Shown here: positions 3,564 through 12,804 of the stretch, one piece after another
How the letters are laid out: every line of letters starts with the position of its first letter
Position numbering within the stretch: position 1 is the stretch's first letter
Made by a program: the position numbers and the translations under genes
Notes under the pieces: model-generated
The model's input: only the letters and a program-made list of their open reading frames with translations
The model's database searches: none
What the model was told of the DNA's origin: nothing
NCBI GenBank assembly: GCA_905236085.1
Contig: CAJOOD010000015.1
Coordinates: 1-36,895, forward strand
Direction: 5' to 3'
Length of the DNA stretch: 36,895 nucleotides
Source: an uncultured Bacilli bacterium
GTDB taxonomy: Bacteria > Bacillota_I > Bacilli_A > RFN20 > CAG-826

Positions 3564-3596
3564 ACTCTCCATGCGAAATGTGTGGAGAGTTTTTTC
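3564..3596 (+). terminator. Rho-independent terminator after hypA
   Basis: ACTCTCCA (3564-3571) pairs with TGGAGAGT (3583-3590), followed by a T-run. Confidence 0.75.
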
Positions 3597-3607
3597 ATAT
3601 TTTTATC

Positions 3608-3637
3608 TTTACAATTGCACATATAAAGCAATACAAT
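3608..3637 (+). promoter_or_regulatory. Candidate promoter of the six-gene island operon
   Basis: TTTACA (3608-3613), 18-nt spacer, TACAAT (3632-3637). Sits just downstream of the hypA terminator and ~37 nt upstream of ATG 3674. Confidence 0.5.
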
Positions 3638-3660
3638 ATAAGTGCAATAAGAAAAATTGC
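3614..3660. promoter_or_regulatory. Operator-like repeat set ATTGC/GCAAT x4 overlapping the promoter
   Basis: ATTGC 3614-3618, GCAAT 3628-3632, GCAAT 3644-3648, ATTGC 3656-3660. 7-bp inverted repeat ATTGCAC (3614-3620) / GTGCAAT (3642-3648) brackets the -10. Confidence 0.4.
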
Positions 3661-3673
3661 GAGGAGGGAATAT

Positions 3674-3871
3674 ATGGCTAAAACAGTTAATTTCACCGTT
3701 AGAGTGGACGCAGATATCAAGGAAGAAGCCGAAGAATTATTTAAGGACTTAGGTCTTAATCTAACTTCCGCGGTTAATATCTTCTTAAGAGAATGTGTTC
3801 GTCGTAACGGCATTCCGTTTGAAGTAAGCCGCAACGCTGCCAAAGCAAAAATAGAAGAATTAGAAAGATAA
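3674..3871 (+). CDS. RelB/DinJ-family ribbon-helix-helix protein (antitoxin-like, probable operon regulator)
   Basis: Start moved to ATG 3674 (GAGGAGGG at 3661-3668). 65 aa. VNFTVRVDADIKEEAEELFKDLGLNLTSAVNIFLRECVRRNGIPFEV matches the RelB/DinJ pattern. Confidence 0.8.
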   Translation: MAKTVNFTVRVDADIKEEAEELFKDLGLNLTSAVNIFLRECVRRNGIPFEVSRNAAKAKIEELER

Positions 3872-3892: not shown

Positions 3893-5221
3893 ATGATTTT
3901 TAAAAAAGGAGAAAATGTCGTCTTCACTGATTCTAGCAAGGCCACTGTCGTGGAGGAATTAGGAAGCGGCAAACAAGGTGTAGTTTATAAAGTTAAATAT
4001 AATAATGATTTTTATGCTTTAAAAATGTATAAATCTTCATTTCTTAAAAACCTTAAAGCTAGACATAAAGATAAAAAGTTCTATTTAAATCTAGCGGATA
4101 ATGTTTCTAGACAGACTGTTAGTCCAAACTTTATTTGGCCTTTAAGATTAACCGAAACATTTGATGATGGAACTTATGGTTATTTAATGGAATTAATCCC
4201 TGCAAATTATACCTCTTTTATGAAAATCCTTGCAAATCCCAGCAAATTAAAAGCAAATTATTTCTTTTCTATTGTCACCAAGGCATCGATAAATGTCGTT
4301 GATACATTAAGAAAGTTATTCATCAACGGCTTAAGTTTCCAAGACTTCAATGATGGCAGTTTATACATCAATCAAGATAATGGCGATATTAAAATTTGTG
4401 ACTGCGATAACATTGGACCAAATAATAAAGAAGCATTTATCTTAGGTAAATATCAATATATGGCCCCAGAGATTGCTTTAGGTCAAAAATTACCCAATCG
4501 AAGATCAGATCAATTCTCTTTATCGGTTATCTTATTTACCATGTTCTTCTTAACTAGGCCATTTGATGGGAAAGCTTATCGAAGCGAAATACCATCTGAA
4601 TCGGTAAATATCAAATATTTTGGAGAAAATCCGGTTTATATTTGTAATCCAAACGATCATTCTAATGGTCCGGTTAGAGGTATACATCGTGCGTTGATAT
4701 CTTTGTATCCTAAATATCCTGATTATCTTAAGCAAGCATTCTTAAAAGAATATACTCAAGGTTTAAAAAATGAGAACGCTAGACTTCAAGAAGATGAATG
4801 GCTATTTATCTTAACGAGATTAGAAAGCGATATCATCAAATGTCCATATTGTAAGGAAGAGATGTTTGTTAAAGATTTATCTCAAGATGTTTGTCAATGT
4901 GAAGAATGCAAGAAGACCTTTACTAGACCCACAATGCTATATGCGAATGAAAATGAGCATCTATATGGAGAATTTGGAAGGAAATTATACCGTTGGCAAG
5001 TGGACAATTCGCGTTTATTCTCTAATTCATCCTTAGACGTCTTAGGGGAAGTCACAGCCTCTAAAAAGAATCCAAATATTAAAATATTAAAGAATTTATC
5101 AAGAGATACATGGATATTAAATTATCAAGGAGAAGACAAAGAAATCTCTCCTGATAAGAATCTGCCATTAATTCGCGGACAATATGTCACGATTAATAAT
5201 AAAAAATTTACCATAAAATAA
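3893..5221 (+). CDS. Hanks-type Ser/Thr protein kinase with C-terminal Zn ribbon and FHA-like domain
   Basis: Gly loop GSGKQGVVY; YALK (K44); catalytic-loop-like FQDFNDGS; DFG-like CDCD; YMAPE; RSDQFSLSVILF. Zn ribbon CPYC...CQCEEC (aa 317-339). The ~90-aa tail resembles FHA (inference). Confidence 0.8.
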   Translation: MIFKKGENVVFTDSSKATVVEELGSGKQGVVYKVKYNNDFYALKMYKSSFLKNLKARHKDKKFYLNLADNVSRQTVSPNFIWPLRLTETFDDGTYGYLMELIPANYTSFMKILANPSKLKANYFFSIVTKASINVVDTLRKLFINGLSFQDFNDGSLYINQDNGDIKICDCDNIGPNNKEAFILGKYQYMAPEIALGQKLPNRRSDQFSLSVILFTMFFLTRPFDGKAYRSEIPSESVNIKYFGENPVYICNPNDHSNGPVRGIHRALISLYPKYPDYLKQAFLKEYTQGLKNENARLQEDEWLFILTRLESDIIKCPYCKEEMFVKDLSQDVCQCEECKKTFTRPTMLYANENEHLYGEFGRKLYRWQVDNSRLFSNSSLDVLGEVTASKKNPNIKILKNLSRDTWILNYQGEDKEISPDKNLPLIRGQYVTINNKKFTIK

Positions 5222-5233
5222 GGAGCATGAATT

Positions 5234-5974
5234 ATGTTAGTACCAGGTACACAAAAAAGACAATGCCTAATCTATTTAGTCATTGATACATCAGGAAGCA
5301 TGGATGGAACCAAGATTTCTCAGGTTAATTATTCCATACCTCAAGTATTATCAAGTATTCAAGATCTAAATGACTCTAATCCAGAAGCGGAGATAGAAGT
5401 GGCTTTATTAGCCTTTGATAGTCACGCTAGATGGGTAACTAAAAATCCAGAAAAACCAGAAGATTTGAAAAAACACTGGAAAGATTTAACCGCGAATGGA
5501 TTAACCGAATTAGGCGAAGCATGTAATTTCTTAAATGAAAAAATGCATAGAACCAAAAACGGAGGATTTCACGATGATTCCGCAGGTGCTTTAACTGCGG
5601 GTGTTATCTTTATTACTGATGGACTTCCAACTGGTTCATATAAACCAGCCTTAGCTAAATTACAAAAAAATCATTGGTATAAAGATGCTTTTAAATATTG
5701 TTTAGCTTGTGGTGATGATTTAAGCGAAGGAATGTCAGTATTTGAAGAATTAGTGGGTAACAATGAATGTATTCACCTCATTTCTGATGAAAATGCTTGT
5801 CGCTTAGGTGATTATATCCGTGTCGTTACCGCGATTGTGTCTGATTCAGTTTCATCTACTATTCCATTAGGAGAAACTAATAAAGAAGATAATAATCAAG
5901 GAACATTTAATCAAGACGCGGTTGATCAAATTAATGAAGAAGTTAAATCAATCGACGATTTAATTGACGACTAG
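5234..5974 (+). CDS. von Willebrand factor A (vWA) protein, TerY-like
   Basis: MIDAS motif DTSGS (D18/S20/S22), downstream T (GLTELG) and D (FITDGLPT). AAGGAG at 5220-5225. Acidic C-terminal tail. Confidence 0.85.
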   Translation: MLVPGTQKRQCLIYLVIDTSGSMDGTKISQVNYSIPQVLSSIQDLNDSNPEAEIEVALLAFDSHARWVTKNPEKPEDLKKHWKDLTANGLTELGEACNFLNEKMHRTKNGGFHDDSAGALTAGVIFITDGLPTGSYKPALAKLQKNHWYKDAFKYCLACGDDLSEGMSVFEELVGNNECIHLISDENACRLGDYIRVVTAIVSDSVSSTIPLGETNKEDNNQGTFNQDAVDQINEEVKSIDDLIDD

Positions 5975-5984
5975 GAGAAAGAAC

Positions 5985-6923
5985 ATGTTTGTCTCAAAGA
6001 TGTATTTTGTAACCGGTAATGCATCATTTATCGGTGCCTCACATGTTAGAAATAAAACTGTCTGCCAAGATGCATCTATTTCTCTTGTCGAAGAAAGAAC
6101 GAGAAAATACGCTCTATCTGCGGTTAGCGATGGACATGGTTCTAAGAAACATTTTCGTAGCGAATTAGGTTCTAAATTCGCTATTGAATGCGCAAAAGAA
6201 GTCGCTGAGAAAATATCAAGAAATTACCATAAAATTTTAAAAAATCTCAAAAAATATGGGGGATATGACGATAATTTTCTAAATTATATCGCCTCACAAA
6301 TAATCATTTTATGGAACAAAAAATGCATAGAGCATGTTAAAAATCATCCTTATGTTAATGATGAGAAATATCTTTTGTTAACTGATGAAGATAAGGCTTC
6401 TATTAATAAAGATAATGATTATATAAATGGAGACATTAATAATTTAAAAGCTTATGGAGCAACATTTCTCATGTATATCCGTTTTAAGGATTTCTCTTTG
6501 GTTCTGAAATTAGGGGATGGCAATGTCTTATTTATCAAAGATGAGAAAATATATGAAGATGAATCTATCATTGATAACAATTTAAAATTCAATCTAACAT
6601 CTTCATTGTGTTCTGAAGATGCCTTAAAGAAATTTAATTACAAATTCTTCGATAAAGAAAATACTCCAGATGCCGTATTAATTTCTAGCGATGGAATAAT
6701 TAATTCTTTTGAAAACGAGCAATATTTTTATACTTACTGCGCTAAAGTGGTCGATTTATATCTAAAAGAAGATAAGAGTTACGAAGATAAGATTAAGGAA
6801 CTATTAGAATCATTATCATATATCACCGAAACAGGTTCAGGCGATGATTGTTCTATAGCCTTTGTTATCAATAAAGATATCTCTCAATTTATCAAAGAAT
6901 ATCTAGCTAAGAAGGAAAATTAA
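5985..6923 (+). CDS. PP2C-family Ser/Thr protein phosphatase (PP2C_2-like)
   Basis: Start moved from TTG 5964 to ATG 5985 (AGGAGA at 5973-5978). Motifs: GASHVRNKTVCQD, AVSDGHGS, LGDGN, ISSDGI, GSGDDCSIAF. Confidence 0.8.
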   Translation: MFVSKMYFVTGNASFIGASHVRNKTVCQDASISLVEERTRKYALSAVSDGHGSKKHFRSELGSKFAIECAKEVAEKISRNYHKILKNLKKYGGYDDNFLNYIASQIIILWNKKCIEHVKNHPYVNDEKYLLLTDEDKASINKDNDYINGDINNLKAYGATFLMYIRFKDFSLVLKLGDGNVLFIKDEKIYEDESIIDNNLKFNLTSSLCSEDALKKFNYKFFDKENTPDAVLISSDGIINSFENEQYFYTYCAKVVDLYLKEDKSYEDKIKELLESLSYITETGSGDDCSIAFVINKDISQFIKEYLAKKEN

Positions 6924-6924
6924 A

Positions 6925-7875
6925 ATGTTTACCTTTTATTATTCCCAACTGAATTCGATTGAAAAGAAGATATATAACCAATATCTCTCAACTTTAAAAG
7001 AGAAGAAAAATACTTTTATAGTCACAGGGAATATCAAAGAAGAAAATCTTCTTCGAGCAAGAGATGCTTTGTTCTTCGATCATGCTGAAATATATGAACA
7101 AAGTAACGCCATGTCATATATGTTCTTGGGAAATATGTTAAAGGTGGAACTTGATTATTATTTTTCTATTGAAGATATAAAGAAATATGAACAAGAAATA
7201 ATTGCCTCTGTTATTAATAATTTTAAATTCTTAAAGATGTTATCTAGTGATTATGACAAATTAAAATATATTCATGATTATTTCTGCAACCATGTCACTT
7301 ATGATTTAGAAGAAGAAAACGCTTTTAATATCCTTGGACCACTTCTTAAAAATAGAGGTGTTTGTCAAGGGGTGGCTATGTCAGTAAAACTGATATGTGA
7401 TTATTTAAAAATCAAATGTTATATCGCCTATGGAACATTAAAAAAGGATGATGGAGAAGAAGGACATGCCTGGAATGTCGTTAATATCAATGATAATTGG
7501 TATCATTTAGATCTCACAAATGATTTAAATAATTATCAATTCTCTCTTGTATCATATGATTATTTTCTAATCTCCGATAGCGACATTTATAAGACTCATA
7601 CTCCTACAAAAGATTTTAAGATGATGCCGTGTATCGATAATAAACTGAATTATTATTACATGAATCATATCGCTTTTAATTCTTTATCTAAAGCGGTGGA
7701 TTATATAAATAACGCTTTTAAAAGTAGAGATGTTGTTAGGTTTAGATTATTGAGCAATGATGAAAAAGATTATTTTACTAGAATATTTACACGCATCAAA
7801 CTTACATCATATCAATCTATGAAATTAGAATATGTATTTAATAAACATTTAAACACTTACACAGTAAAAATATAA
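6925..7875 (+). CDS. Transglutaminase-like (papain-fold) Cys-His-Asp protein, cytoplasmic
   Basis: RGVCQGVAMSVKLICDYL (C147), EGHAWNVV (H181), WYHLDLT (D196). No signal peptide. The ATG is 1 nt after the PP2C stop. Confidence 0.8.
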   Translation: MFTFYYSQLNSIEKKIYNQYLSTLKEKKNTFIVTGNIKEENLLRARDALFFDHAEIYEQSNAMSYMFLGNMLKVELDYYFSIEDIKKYEQEIIASVINNFKFLKMLSSDYDKLKYIHDYFCNHVTYDLEEENAFNILGPLLKNRGVCQGVAMSVKLICDYLKIKCYIAYGTLKKDDGEEGHAWNVVNINDNWYHLDLTNDLNNYQFSLVSYDYFLISDSDIYKTHTPTKDFKMMPCIDNKLNYYYMNHIAFNSLSKAVDYINNAFKSRDVVRFRLLSNDEKDYFTRIFTRIKLTSYQSMKLEYVFNKHLNTYTVKI

Positions 7876-7884
7876 GGAAAGACA

Positions 7885-10800
7885 ATGGGAAATTTATTTA
7901 AGAGATTATCATCCAATTTATTAGATTTAGGCTTAAGAAATAAATTATTAAATTTCAAAGAGCAAAAGCTTAGATTTATTAAAATAATCGATCCTAATAT
8001 CGATAATATTTTCTCATGGATTACCTCTAATAAAGCTTTATATTTTAAAGTCTCACAATTAGAGATAAATGAAGATCCTAATCATGATTATAGTCAAACT
8101 TATCTAGCAAATTATCATGAGAAATTAAATAAATACGATATCAGCGCCTATAAGAAGCATGAGAAATTATTATATATCTTAAAGAATCTAAAGAAATTTA
8201 ATGATTCTGCTTTATTAGAAAGAGGAATTAATATCTTATATCTCGCTTTAAATTTTATGGTTTGGGAGGATATTGATAATCCAAAAACCCCTCTAAAGTC
8301 CCCTCTTTTATTAATTCCTGTTAATTTATCCTACGATAAGAATCTACAAAAATATTATTTAAGAATGGTCTCAGACGAGGTGATAGTCAACCCAGTTTTA
8401 AAAGCTAAATTACAATTATCATATTCTCTTGATTTACCTGAATATGATAATGATAAAGATGATAATATCTCATATATCAATAAAATTAATCGCATAATTA
8501 AAATGAAAAACTGGAGTCTTTTAAATGAGATATATTTAGGTGTATTCTCATTTGAAAAATTAACCATGTATCAAGACTTAAAAGAAAATGAAAATAAGAT
8601 GGAATCATCTTCTTTAATAAGAGCCTTATATAACGGAGAAAGTGGGATAATATTTAATAATGAATTTAATGGAAAAGATTTCTTTAAAAATTCTTTAGAT
8701 GTTACCTCTTTACACAATGTAGTCGATGCTGATTCATCACAACTAGAAGCTATAGCCAAAGCCAAAAATGGTGATTCTTTTGTCATTCAAGGCCCTCCAG
8801 GAACTGGGAAATCACAAACTATTACTAATATTATTTCTGAGATGATATATCAAGGAAAAAGAGTATTGTTCGTATCAGAAAAACTCGCCGCTTTAAATAT
8901 TGTTTATAGTAATTTAAAAAAAGCCAAATTAGATGACTTTATCATGAAAATTCATAGCGATAAGGAGAATAAAAAGAATTTTGTTTATGAATTATATCGC
9001 TCATATAAAGCTGCGAAATATATTTCTTCAAATAGAGAAAAGAAATTAGAAGCTTTATTAACTAATAAGGAAGAATTAGATAATTATGATAAAGCTATAC
9101 ATAGATATATCCCTAAATTAGAGATGGATGTTTATTCCTTAATATCTAAGATGTATGAATCGAAAATTCATCTTGATAATTATGAAGATAAAAAATTATT
9201 ATCTTTAACTAATAATGATTTAAAGGCGCGTCTTGATGCTTTACATAATTTTGCTAATTATCCCACTAAGGTTAGAGATGATTATTGGAATTATGCATGG
9301 TATGGTTTTAAAGGCGATAAGCATAATACCTTATTTGAAGATAATATCATTATCAAGATTAAGGAATATTATTATTTTGTTAATACTTTAAAATTCTTCA
9401 AAGACAAGATTAATACATTTTTAGATATTGATTTATCTACCTATAATAAAATTGATAAGAGTCTTGAGTTATTAAAAACCATTAAAAAAATGCCATTTAT
9501 AGCTAAGGATATTTACCGCAAGGAAAGGCTCAATTTCTATAAAAAAACCTTAGAAATAATATATTTTCACTTAAAAAGATGCTTAGAAACCAGAGCCCAT
9601 ATCGAAAGCCTTTATTATGATGATATCTATTTATTAGACATCGAAAGATTAAATAATGATTTTCATAATAAATATAAAACTCATTTCCGTTTCTTTAATT
9701 CATCTTATCGCAAAGACATGAAAATGATTAAGATGTCTCTTAGAAACAAAGACAACAAATTAAATTATGAATCCGTGAAAGATTTAATTTCTAAGGTCTA
9801 TTTATTCTTGAGTGATAAATGTGTATTAGATCTAGCTTATCAAGATTTAGATTTCTTAAAAGATAATAATCTCAACTTTGAAAAATACTCCTTAGAGGAG
9901 ATTAAACGTGTATTAGATCTATTAACTGATATATCTAATAATTATGACGCTGATATTAATTATTTAGAAAAATATGATTATTCGCATTATCAAGAATTAA
10001 ATAAATATATTGATATCATACTTAACACTATGAATGATAAAGATAAGCATGAAAGACTTTATAATTATTTTGAAGTGTCAATTATTAATTTCAAAAATGG
10101 CTTAATAGATGAAGTAGTTCCTTATGTTTATAATTTAATCAAACATGAAGGTGAAGTTGATGATTACTCTAGATTCTATTTATACATGCAAGAATTTGAA
10201 AAATTAGGCATCTTAGATTTTTATAAAACTGCGATTAATAACGGAGTCAAGAAAAGTGAATTATTAGATGCTTTTTCCTATATCTTTTATAAGGAACATT
10301 TTAAAAATATCTATCTAACCAGCGCCGATTTGCGGGGTTTTGATGATGATAAACTGAATAATATCCATGAAGCATATAAGAAATTAGATACGGAATTATT
10401 CGATTTAAATCAAAAAGAAATCAAGGCGGAATTGTTTAAAAAAGTCTTAGATAAATCTAATAAAAATGAGGCTTCTAATCGCGCTATAATTAAGGAATTC
10501 TCTTTAATTGAACATGAAGCCAATAAGAAAAGACAGATAAAACCGATTAGAACATTATTTAAAGAAGCTTCTAATGCGATTAGATATATTAAGCCTTGTT
10601 TATTGATGTCACCTTTAAGTGTTGCAACTTATTTAGAATACGACGAGAATTTATTTGATGTTCTCATCTTTGATGAAGCTTCACAAATTTTCCCTTGGGA
10701 CGCTATTGGATCCATTGCAAGAAGCAAACAAATAATTGTCTCTGGCGACTCTAAGCAAATGCCACCATCTAATTTCTTCCAGACATCTAATATTGTTTAT

Positions 10801-12804
10801 GACGATGAATATTTAGACGAGGAAGAAGAAAATATAAATGATTATGAATCGATATTAGATTTAGCCACCGCAGTCTTACCTGATTCATCTTTAAATTGGC
10901 ATTATAGAAGTAGAAATGAATCATTGATCACTTTTTCTAATCATCATTTCTACGATGATAAATTAATCACTTTTCCATCATCTTTAATAAATAATTCCGA
11001 TTTTGGCTTGGATTTTGAATATGTTAGTAACGGAACATTTATAAATAGAATTAATTATGAAGAAGGCTTAAAAGTAGTGGATATGATTTATGAGCATTAT
11101 AAAAATCATCCCGAAAGATCTCTAGGAGTGGTGGCCTTTTCTATTTCCCAACAGCAATTAATCGAGGACTTATTGGACGTAAAAAGGAAGATAGATGATC
11201 GCTATGCTCCATATTTTAATCAGGAAATAAAAGAGCCTTTCTTTATTAAGAATTTAGAAACTGTGCAAGGGGATGAAAGGGATACCATAATATTTTCTAT
11301 TGGCTACGCTAAAGATAATAATGGAATATTAAAACACAATTTCGGTCCATTGAATAGAAAAGGCGGAGAAAGAAGATTAAATGTCGCTATTACAAGAGCG
11401 AAATATAATGTTAAAGTTGTTTCTTCGATTCGTGGGATGGATATAGATTTATCTAAAACAAATTCTTTAGGAGCCTCTTTATTAAAATCATATTTAGAAG
11501 CTGCAGAAAAGGGTGTTAACATTACCTCTAGTATGACTAGAGAAAATAACATAACTTTTGCCTTAGAAGAAGATATTAAAAAATATATTAAATCTTTAAA
11601 TTATGATGTTGATACTAAGGTTGGATATTCTGATTATCGTATCGATTTATGTGTCAAACATCCAAAATACAATAATTATGTTTTAGCTATTGAATGTGAT
11701 GGTGAAAATTATCACAAAAATAAGAATACAAGAGATAGAGAGCGACTAAGAGAAAACATCTTAGGAAGATTAGGATGGAAATATCATCGCATTTATTCCT
11801 TAGATTGGCTTTTAAATAACAATATAGCCAAAGCAAAATTAGTAAGCATCATCAATAGAGCTATCAATGATTATGATGATTTAATCGCTCAAATGAATCC
11901 TGTTAAAGTTATCAGTAATAATGTGGTGAATTATAATGATGGTGATAATCTTTTCTATGACGAATTAACATATAAAGAAAGATATCTTATCGATCAATTA
12001 AATGATGATATTAATAATCTAAATTATCGATTCATTAGATATAATAACACTGATAATTATGGCTATTGTTATGAGCAAGATATCAATAATAAAATAAATG
12101 ATTATTGGTTCTATTTCTCGAAAAATAATGGCGATTTGCTATTTAATTACATATTAAATCCTGGCGCAAATAGGATTAAATATGAAGGAATTAAAGTGGA
12201 TTTAGATGATACAAAGAGCATTTCTTACACCATTAAAAGTTTAATTAAAGATAGATTTGGTTTTAAAATCAATAAGAATAGAATAAGCATTAAAAATACG
12301 AGTGTCTTACCTAATCTATCATTAAAATTGTATGAGAATATAGTTAAGGAAATCAAAGGTATACCATATAACGCCGAATATAAGCAAAACAAGGTTATTA
12401 AGGATGTTGTTAACTATTTGTATGATGACATTATTAATTATGCGATATCTAGAAGATTATTTAAGAGTAAAGATGATTTCTATAAAAACAAAAATACGAA
12501 AATAGTATCTTATAATTTCCATGGAATTATCTTTGATTTTGATAATTTAAACCCCTCAATTGCCAAAACCATATACGACTATTATAAAGCTAACGCTTTG
12601 ATTAACGTGGTGAGACATTATGAGAATATGTTTTCTGAAACCATCATTATCAATCAAAAAGTGGTAATGGAAGATTTTAAAAACCTTATCGCTATTAATG
12701 ATGTTAATTTCTCTAGAGCTTCGGGCATGAATGATAATTTCCAAGATGTTCCTAATTTGCTATTAATCGACAAACTTAAATCATTTATTCCAGTAGAAAA
12801 TTAA
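7885..12804 (+). CDS. DUF4011 / Upf1-like SF1 helicase fused to a Vsr/DUF559-like endonuclease, plus an unassigned ~330-aa C-terminus (Hhe-like)
   Basis: N-terminal LLDLGLRNKLLNF (DUF4011-type). Walker A GPPGTGKS (aa 303-310). LIFDEASQ (aa 927-934), VSGDSKQMPP, WHYRS, TVQGDERDTIIFS, RRLNVAITRAK. Nuclease YRIDL...LAIECDGENYH...RDRERLRENILGRLGW (aa ~1250-1300). Confidence 0.85.
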   Translation: MGNLFKRLSSNLLDLGLRNKLLNFKEQKLRFIKIIDPNIDNIFSWITSNKALYFKVSQLEINEDPNHDYSQTYLANYHEKLNKYDISAYKKHEKLLYILKNLKKFNDSALLERGINILYLALNFMVWEDIDNPKTPLKSPLLLIPVNLSYDKNLQKYYLRMVSDEVIVNPVLKAKLQLSYSLDLPEYDNDKDDNISYINKINRIIKMKNWSLLNEIYLGVFSFEKLTMYQDLKENENKMESSSLIRALYNGESGIIFNNEFNGKDFFKNSLDVTSLHNVVDADSSQLEAIAKAKNGDSFVIQGPPGTGKSQTITNIISEMIYQGKRVLFVSEKLAALNIVYSNLKKAKLDDFIMKIHSDKENKKNFVYELYRSYKAAKYISSNREKKLEALLTNKEELDNYDKAIHRYIPKLEMDVYSLISKMYESKIHLDNYEDKKLLSLTNNDLKARLDALHNFANYPTKVRDDYWNYAWYGFKGDKHNTLFEDNIIIKIKEYYYFVNTLKFFKDKINTFLDIDLSTYNKIDKSLELLKTIKKMPFIAKDIYRKERLNFYKKTLEIIYFHLKRCLETRAHIESLYYDDIYLLDIERLNNDFHNKYKTHFRFFNSSYRKDMKMIKMSLRNKDNKLNYESVKDLISKVYLFLSDKCVLDLAYQDLDFLKDNNLNFEKYSLEEIKRVLDLLTDISNNYDADINYLEKYDYSHYQELNKYIDIILNTMNDKDKHERLYNYFEVSIINFKNGLIDEVVPYVYNLIKHEGEVDDYSRFYLYMQEFEKLGILDFYKTAINNGVKKSELLDAFSYIFYKEHFKNIYLTSADLRGFDDDKLNNIHEAYKKLDTELFDLNQKEIKAELFKKVLDKSNKNEASNRAIIKEFSLIEHEANKKRQIKPIRTLFKEASNAIRYIKPCLLMSPLSVATYLEYDENLFDVLIFDEASQIFPWDAIGSIARSKQIIVSGDSKQMPPSNFFQTSNIVYDDEYLDEEEENINDYESILDLATAVLPDSSLNWHYRSRNESLITFSNHHFYDDKLITFPSSLINNSDFGLDFEYVSNGTFINRINYEEGLKVVDMIYEHYKNHPERSLGVVAFSISQQQLIEDLLDVKRKIDDRYAPYFNQEIKEPFFIKNLETVQGDERDTIIFSIGYAKDNNGILKHNFGPLNRKGGERRLNVAITRAKYNVKVVSSIRGMDIDLSKTNSLGASLLKSYLEAAEKGVNITSSMTRENNITFALEEDIKKYIKSLNYDVDTKVGYSDYRIDLCVKHPKYNNYVLAIECDGENYHKNKNTRDRERLRENILGRLGWKYHRIYSLDWLLNNNIAKAKLVSIINRAINDYDDLIAQMNPVKVISNNVVNYNDGDNLFYDELTYKERYLIDQLNDDINNLNYRFIRYNNTDNYGYCYEQDINNKINDYWFYFSKNNGDLLFNYILNPGANRIKYEGIKVDLDDTKSISYTIKSLIKDRFGFKINKNRISIKNTSVLPNLSLKLYENIVKEIKGIPYNAEYKQNKVIKDVVNYLYDDIINYAISRRLFKSKDDFYKNKNTKIVSYNFHGIIFDFDNLNPSIAKTIYDYYKANALINVVRHYENMFSETIIINQKVVMEDFKNLIAINDVNFSRASGMNDNFQDVPNLLLIDKLKSFIPVEN

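Follow-up and report, generated by a model that had tools for sequence, protein, structure and literature searches.

A DUF4011-family helicase-nuclease with an apparently exchanged C-terminal domain behind a TerY-P and transglutaminase-like cassette in an uncultured Bacilli bacterium

The question raised by the locus described here is what a very large helicase-nuclease, ending in a C-terminus without a recognised domain, does as the last gene behind a kinase, a vWA protein, a phosphatase and a transglutaminase-like protein, and whether that C-terminus connects it to them. The locus lies within a stretch of 36,895 nucleotides (nt), termed the window below, of contig CAJOOD010000015.1 (GenBank assembly GCA_905236085.1) from an uncultured Bacilli bacterium. 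The gene in question occupies positions 7885..12804 of the forward strand (4920 nt including the stop codon) and specifies a protein of 1639 amino acids (aa), P0001, in which a DUF4011 domain, a superfamily 1 (SF1) helicase and an MTES_1575 nuclease are joined; an open reading frame (ORF) of 4.9 kb amid DNA of 27% G+C is far above chance. The explanation that we favour, and consider probable, is that of an intact DUF4011-family helicase-nuclease which carries a swapped tail and which the upstream cassette probably gates.

Domain searches and an alignment of 108 homologues identify the gene as an ordinary, intact single-chain member of the known DUF4011 anti-phage helicase-nuclease family (PDC-S37, Prometheus ProA, Hhe), and we are highly confident of both its identity and its intactness. 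The N-terminal DUF4011 domain (PF13195, E=2.6e-31) is encoded at 7915..8412 (aa 11-176), and is followed by an AAA_11 match at aa 283-416 with the Walker A motif GPPGTGKS at 8791..8814 (aa 303-310), by helicase motif II, DEASQ, at 10672..10686 (aa 930-934), and by a GDSKQ motif at aa 954-958. The RecA2/AAA_12 region with motifs IV-VI (PF13087) spans 10888..11427 (aa 1002-1181), the invariant motifs QGDERD and GGERRLNVAITRA being located at aa 1128-1133 and aa 1160-1172, respectively, while the Vsr-like PD-(D/E)xK nuclease domain (MTES_1575; PF18741, E=5.9e-28) is found at 11566..11847 (aa 1228-1321) with its ECDG motif at aa 1270-1273. Residues that are fully conserved among the aligned homologues, namely K309, D930, E931, Q934, R1163/R1164, R1171, D1254, E1270 and D1272, are all present in this protein; R1163/R1164 and R1171 are the arginine fingers of the helicase, and D1254, E1270 and D1272 are the catalytic residues of the nuclease. 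The positions that the initial annotation had given for the ORF, the Walker A motif and the DEASQ motif were exact, and its worry that the nuclease core might lack catalytic residues is laid to rest by the alignment.

The defence architecture proposed in that annotation, DUF4011 followed by an Upf1-like SF1 helicase and a Vsr-like nuclease, was borne out by comparison with models of defence proteins. The PADLOC model PDC-S37 scored 1160 bits, with aa 5-1333 aligned to model positions 10-1348 of 1550; this model comes without a curated cut-off. The NCBIfam model ProA (NF058533) scored 1074 bits over aa 6-1330, which is below its equivalog cut-off of 1500, and its model positions 1-360 and 1711-1903 were unmatched. 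The NCBIfam model Hhe (NF042953) scored 759 bits in three stretches (best aa 625-1325), which is below its equivalog cut-off of 2000 and not full-length, and the PADLOC Hhe model (PDLC02194) scored 527 bits over aa 801-1329. Among solved structures, the relatives of the helicase are the Upf1-like SF1 enzymes IGHMBP2, Senataxin and Upf1.

The most conspicuous feature of the raw sequence is an insert of ~590 aa in RecA1, encoded at 8902..10659 (aa ~340-925) between Walker A and motif II and rich in K, L, D, Y and N (13%, 12%, 9%, 8.7% and 8.5%, respectively). The long K/N/Y/L-rich insert noted earlier is thus present as described, but it is no peculiarity of this protein, being common to the whole family. 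The spacing between Walker A and DEASQ is 627 aa here and 614-638 aa (median 625) in the 121 best homologues, and the PDC-S37 and ProA models run colinearly across the insert. Since its length is constant across the family (121/121 homologues), the insert is specific neither to this operon nor to this protein. Column conservation is moderate at its ends (0.53-0.60) and lower in its middle (0.35-0.37). What looks odd in the sequence is a standard structural element of these proteins.

It is at the C-terminus that the protein and most of its relatives part. No Pfam domain was found beyond aa 1321, and the tail alone (aa 1331-1639) gave zero Pfam matches even at E<=10, DUF3320 (PF11784) included. 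When the 121 homologues were compared for the length of sequence that follows the ECDG motif, two classes emerged, one of 237-291 aa (more than 100 proteins, some of which score for DUF3320) and one of 371-408 aa, made up of 15 protein clusters including that of the present protein. A hidden Markov model (HMM) of the tail matched only P0002-P0016 among the 121 helicases, and comparison of the tail of the longer class with the DUF3320-type tail by hhalign returned a probability of 0.3%. The 15 tail-bearing clusters, here called clade A, come out as monophyletic with a support of 1.0 in a tree built from the core that all share, and a single replacement of the C-terminal domain is the simplest reading of this. 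It is therefore very probable that the tail is a clade-wide replacement of the DUF3320-type winged-helix tail. The initial annotation had been correct in describing ~330 aa of unrecognised C-terminus, for which it advised a check for DUF3320; its emphasis on the tail as noteworthy in this protein holds insofar as the tail is real and folded, but not insofar as it is taken to be unique.

The fold of the tail was predicted with AlphaFold2 (AF2) from an alignment of 27 sequences, which gave a mean predicted local distance difference test score (pLDDT) of 86.3 and two modules; a single-sequence prediction reached a pLDDT of 35 and was set aside. In this model a helix extending from the nuclease is followed by a disordered linker, module 1, a second linker and module 2. 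Module 1 (11953..12258, aa ~1357-1458; pLDDT ~90) is predicted to adopt an alpha-beta5-alpha arrangement and carries a 'WF..K....L.FKY' motif, its boundaries being drawn from the model, the alignments and HMM domain matches. Module 2 (12322..12801, aa ~1480-1639; pLDDT 90-98), predicted to be helical with one beta-hairpin, is the best-conserved part of the tail, residues A1560, E1580 and G1614 being invariant in the tail alignment. A Foldseek search of the two-module model against the Protein Data Bank (PDB) and BFVD retrieved nothing below E=0.01, and a profile of 27 tails matched no consistent Pfam family and had no credible match among PDB sequences. Since the AF2 model is confident and no relatives were found in the PDB, BFVD or Pfam, the tail, as modelled, is a real, folded and undescribed domain pair. 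Weak Foldseek hints of a PUR/Whirly/PC4-like fold and of an 'anti-restriction nuclease' (probability <=0.8, TM <0.4) were not relied on, and a ferritin, the sole match of the profile among PDB sequences (E=0.006), was judged spurious.

Relatives of the tail were found by sequence outside clade A. A k-mer homologue search with the tail returned its own protein only, whereas 31 proteins were retrieved when 1.84 billion representatives were searched exhaustively with HMMER. The matches from outside the clade are mostly small proteins of 340-700 aa with an N-terminal zinc ribbon (MALIKCPECG...), in which one to three copies of module 1 precede a single C-terminal module 2, and these proteins are located in defence islands. 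A scan of the genome and viral contigs with an alignment of the zinc ribbon matched only the ubiquitous MALIKCPECG ribbon, with a tail module in 0 of 160 loci. The giant protein P0122, which showed 39 matching 'stretches', is an Ig-like repeat protein and was dismissed as a spurious match. At one further locus, L021 (G137:C12), a 167-aa ORF on the minus strand (4693-5196) consists of module 2 alone; only 2 nt separate it from the type I HsdR gene (1033 aa) upstream. It takes the place that a full clade-A helicase occupies in loci L002 and L026, and may be either a deletion remnant or a free-standing module.

Upstream of the helicase-nuclease gene, and on the same strand, lie genes for a Ser/Thr kinase with a C-terminal zinc ribbon (3893-5221; Pfam Pkinase; CPYC..CEEC at aa 317), a vWA protein (5234-5974; Pfam VWA), a PP2C phosphatase (5964-6923; Pfam PP2C_2) and a transglutaminase-like protein with an invariant Cys147-His181-Asp196 (6925-7875). 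By their Pfam domains the first three (3893-6923) form a TerY-P triad. They are preceded by a gene for a RelB/DinJ-like ribbon-helix-helix (RHH) protein without a toxin partner (3674-3871), the best promoter-like site (3608-3637) and the strong terminator of the preceding gene (3564-3590), all on the plus strand, and the operon is flanked by hypA and pepC. Gaps amount to 21 nt between the RHH and kinase genes and to no more than 12 nt from the kinase through to the helicase, and no terminator-like site was found on the plus strand between 3590 and 12804. The region 3564-3871 is thus the probable start of a transcription unit reaching 12804, and the RHH, kinase, vWA, PP2C, transglutaminase-like and helicase genes apparently form one such unit by their structure, with the helicase as the last cistron. 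The RHH protein may be the repressor of the operon. An McrB/C domain was found neither in these six genes nor in their flanks.

The cassette is not confined to this genome. Of 80 metagenome loci (human-gut and others) that were seeded with the transglutaminase-like protein, 22 contain kinase, vWA, PP2C and transglutaminase genes in the exact order of the window (among them L224, L227, L229, L239, L241, L242, L245, L249, L255, L258, L262, L264, L265, L268 and L300), and the gene that follows the cassette varies. It is an Upf1-like SF1 helicase without DUF4011 in L224 and L227, an SMC-like ATPase with BrxC/D in L241, an SNF2 helicase with HATPase in L258, L262 and L265, and a protein of unknown type in L264; in L229, L242 and L255 nothing follows on the same strand. 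Among the papers that could be searched, none was found to link a transglutaminase-like gene to TerY-P. The transglutaminase family as a whole is no marker of the system, since nine further homologues within the order stand without any other component. Locus L226 (9983-15932) combines a transglutaminase-like gene with one for an Upf1-like SF1 helicase, and no kinase, vWA or PP2C gene lies within 10 kb upstream; the first 700 aa of this helicase share 96% identity with the L227 enzyme, and it has an LRR C-terminus.

The window therefore joins a portable TerY-P and transglutaminase cassette with an otherwise stand-alone clade-A helicase-nuclease of the PDC-S37/Prometheus-like kind. It is plausible that the latter is the effector of the former, and whether the two are functionally coupled is, in our estimation, finely balanced. 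Coupling is favoured by the frequent position of the cassette immediately 5' of large NTPase genes (at a distance of 13-23 nt in L224, L227 and L241), by the occurrence of TerY-P triads with a zinc-ribbon kinase alongside the Upf1-like helicase CnuH in CoCoNuT types II and III-A (PMC11090510), and by the 9 nt that separate the end of the transglutaminase-like gene from the helicase ATG. Mere adjacency is favoured by the uniqueness of the junction and by the self-sufficiency reported for both parts.

The first alternative is that the cassette forms one self-sufficient defence system and the helicase-nuclease another, placed head-to-tail in a small, AT-rich defence island, and that the two are co-transcribed merely through compaction, without biochemical cross-talk; we regard this as a real possibility, if one on the unlikely side. 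Clade-A neighbourhoods were sampled at seven loci from six other clade members (L001, L002, L003, L020, L024/L025 and L026), within 8-10 kb of the helicase, and kinase, vWA, PP2C and transglutaminase genes were found at 0 of the 7. The junction of cassette and clade-A helicase was likewise seen in none of these loci, none of the 20 loci of the nearest helicases from the same order and none of the eight loci of the nearest kinases, those kinases being without a helicase. A kinase next to the helicase in L189 was a weak match from a housekeeping PrkC/Stp operon and was not counted as a triad. Homologous triads are present in L014, L016, L017 and L211-L213, without either helicase or transglutaminase. 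In addition, Hhe/Prometheus and TerY-P have each been reported to work alone (PMC13700489 and PMC11090510), the defence by TerY-P alone being credited to Gao 2020 in the latter.

These observations count against the explanation that we favour: the junction has been seen in this window only, so that the coupling may be adjacency; no large gene follows the cassette in L229, L242 and L255; and TerY-P is reported to defend alone. So do two others, namely that searches by structure and by sequence found no significant relative of the tail, whose role is deduced solely from position and context, and that the ProA and Hhe scores (1074 and 759) fall below the NCBIfam equivalog cut-offs (1500 and 2000), the function of the clade being a prediction from sequence. 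Two independent systems would, however, not account readily for the 9-nt gap between transglutaminase stop and helicase ATG without any internal promoter or terminator signal, for the other large NTPase genes that lie 13-23 nt behind the cassette, or for the association of TerY-P with Upf1-like helicases in CoCoNuTs.

A further argument against independence comes from two genomes of the same order as that of the window, in which the set of triad, transglutaminase and DUF4011 helicase genes recurs in shuffled order. Locus L209 (G083:C7; 4648-15146) contains a vWA-vWA-PP2C-kinase-DUF4011 helicase operon together with a divergent transglutaminase gene, and L210 (G101:C9; 3927-12702) has the order DUF4011 helicase-kinase-vWA-x-PP2C-transglutaminase. 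Both helicases are 23-31% identical to that of the window, fall outside the group of clade A and clade B in the tree and are without the tail; the nuclease is degenerate in the former (IDEDG, with the upstream Asp lost) and missing in the latter. The vWA protein of L210 has a 4Fe-4S ferredoxin domain.

The action of the helicase-nuclease might resemble that of Hhe and Prometheus, the ATPase loading on or translocating along invader nucleic acid, perhaps R-loop or single-stranded DNA-containing intermediates of replication or transcription, which the fused nuclease would then cleave. By the same analogy, the tail would stand in for DUF3320, either recognising the trigger or substrate or holding the enzyme in an autoinhibited state. 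The cassette would probably gate or reinforce the helicase-nuclease by phosphorylation and not via the tail.

This last point bears on the second alternative, which was that of the initial annotation, namely that the ~330-aa C-terminus evolved as a sensor or docking module linking the helicase to the upstream kinase, vWA, PP2C and transglutaminase-like proteins. The tail lacks an assignment in any library and is encoded at the very 3' end of the operon. Yet 14 further protein clusters share it, and tail and insert occur together, irrespective of neighbourhood, at the seven loci from six of these that have no triad. Conversely, the tail HMM matched neither the triad-linked helicases of L209 and L210 nor any of the NTPases that follow the 22 metagenome cassettes. 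Since clade-A loci lack the triad and triad-linked helicases elsewhere lack the tail, the docking idea is without support and is largely refuted, and we consider it very unlikely to be correct; whichever way the matter of coupling falls, the tail is not the coupling element.

The neighbours of the other clade-A helicases, which lie in defence islands, are of a different kind. In L001 the helicase gene stands behind AAA_15, NERD and HNH genes, in L002 and L026 directly behind a type I HsdR gene, in L003 near McrB_N and type I restriction-modification (R-M) genes, and in L024 and L025 behind an HNH gene. In L020 (G166:C1; 4859-10307), within an R-M/DUF262-type island, the insert of a clade-A-like helicase is interrupted, so that two ORFs of 646 and 1118 aa encode the protein, which retains the C-terminal module 2. 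The HNH nuclease gene of ~290 codons lies 33-34 nt upstream of the helicase gene in L001 (9100-9966), L024 (765-1649) and L025 (1299-2183), which suggests that some members of the clade recurrently form a two-gene arrangement with HNH.

Within the order, the components differ widely in frequency, DUF4011 helicases being present in 165 of 401 genomes, TerY-P-type kinases in 13 and the tail in six. Within the genus, five of the six remaining genomes lack the gene, and all that the last one contains is a relative of 1944 aa with 31% identity; the kinase and the transglutaminase were not found in the other genomes of the genus, and a scan of genome contigs seeded with the helicase-nuclease protein gave no matches. 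Nowhere in the window is the DNA richer in AT than in the island (G+C 0.24-0.30 versus 0.32-0.42). Because it is AT-rich and its genes are rare in their own genus, horizontal acquisition fits. The same-genus genomes are only ~56% identical in PepC and not syntenic, and offered no empty site for comparison. A third alternative, that of a host housekeeping enzyme for DNA repair or R-loop resolution rather than an immune gene, could draw on the frequency of DUF4011 helicases in the order, on a DUF4011 gene that is a conserved core gene flanking a P. aeruginosa hotspot (PMC10250203) and on the housekeeping roles of the eukaryotic relatives Senataxin, IGHMBP2 and Upf1, but is most improbable in view of the near absence of the gene from its own genus, where the one relative differs in length, its position in the most AT-rich stretch, the R-M, HNH, NERD, AAA_15 and SLFN genes that surround its clade relatives and the defence-protein models that are its best matches.

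Returning to the helicase-nuclease with a swapped tail and a gating cassette, a bolder joint reading may be offered, if tentatively. The tail modules might constitute an undescribed defence-island family that DUF4011 helicase-nucleases can carry as a plug-in in place of DUF3320, for trigger recognition or autoinhibition, while the free zinc-ribbon forms might serve neighbouring restriction-type systems as partners, regulators or decoys. The cassette, in turn, might be a portable phospho-switch bolted before unrelated NTPase effectors, which would here for the first time drive a catalytically intact Prometheus-like nuclease. The exchange of the C-terminal domain represents a natural domain-swap experiment on what the C-terminus of DUF4011 helicase-nucleases does. 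The locus moreover pairs a catalytically intact helicase-nuclease with a recurrent cassette, whereas the nuclease is degenerate or missing in the other DUF4011 helicases linked to a triad, and it is therefore a good test case for the gating of nuclease effectors by phospho-signalling in bacterial immunity.

Among known systems, the best and longest match of the helicase-nuclease is PDC-S37 (PDLC05009), a single-gene phage-defence candidate of the same length class (1.5-1.65 kaa) in which DUF4011, insert, helicase and nuclease are colinear with those described here. The two differ in that the last ~200 model positions of PDC-S37, its DUF3320-type tail, are unmatched, their place being taken here by ~320 aa of unrelated sequence. 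PDC-S37 is a candidate by listing, and no experimental test of it was found. Prometheus is a validated single-protein system with four domains 'with a characteristic insertion', all of them essential, DUF3320 included, according to PMC13700489 (citing van den Berg et al. 2024). Its protein, ProA, resembles the present one in its DUF4011 domain, in the characteristic insertion of its helicase and in its MTES_1575-type nuclease, but ends in a DUF3320 that is absent here and begins with ~360 model positions that are likewise absent; it also stands alone, while the gene of the window forms part of a kinase/phosphatase operon. In Hhe (Gao et al. 2020), too, a Vsr-like endonuclease is joined to a DUF4011 helicase, and the match covers mainly aa 625-1329; the N-terminal half aligns poorly, the tail is another one, and the protein of the window is ~270 aa shorter.

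As for the upstream genes, the kinase, vWA and PP2C genes match the TerY-P triad (Anantharaman et al. 2012; Gao et al. 2020, both as cited in PMC11090510 and PMC4978471), whose association with helicases and endonucleases is noted in the literature. In the present cassette, a transglutaminase-like gene keeps a fixed fourth place after PP2C, and the kinase ends in a zinc ribbon, as opposed to the OB fold of the validated stand-alone systems (PMC11090510). CoCoNuT types II and III-A (Bell et al. 2024, PMC11090510) are alike in combining TerY-P and its zinc-ribbon kinase with an Upf1-like SF1 helicase containing a helical insertion, and type III-B is alike in the direct fusion of a Vsr-like nuclease to the helicase, although TerY-P is reported never to accompany this Vsr-fused type (PMC11090510). 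CoCoNuTs differ in possessing McrB/McrC (CnuB/C), the HEPN protein CnuE and an SmpB/OB N-terminus, none of which is present here, where the helicase instead carries DUF4011 and is joined by a transglutaminase-like gene. The helicase family itself is already validated as anti-phage, and what is new at this locus is the tail, a clade-specific replacement of DUF3320 that is held in common with free zinc-ribbon proteins of defence islands.

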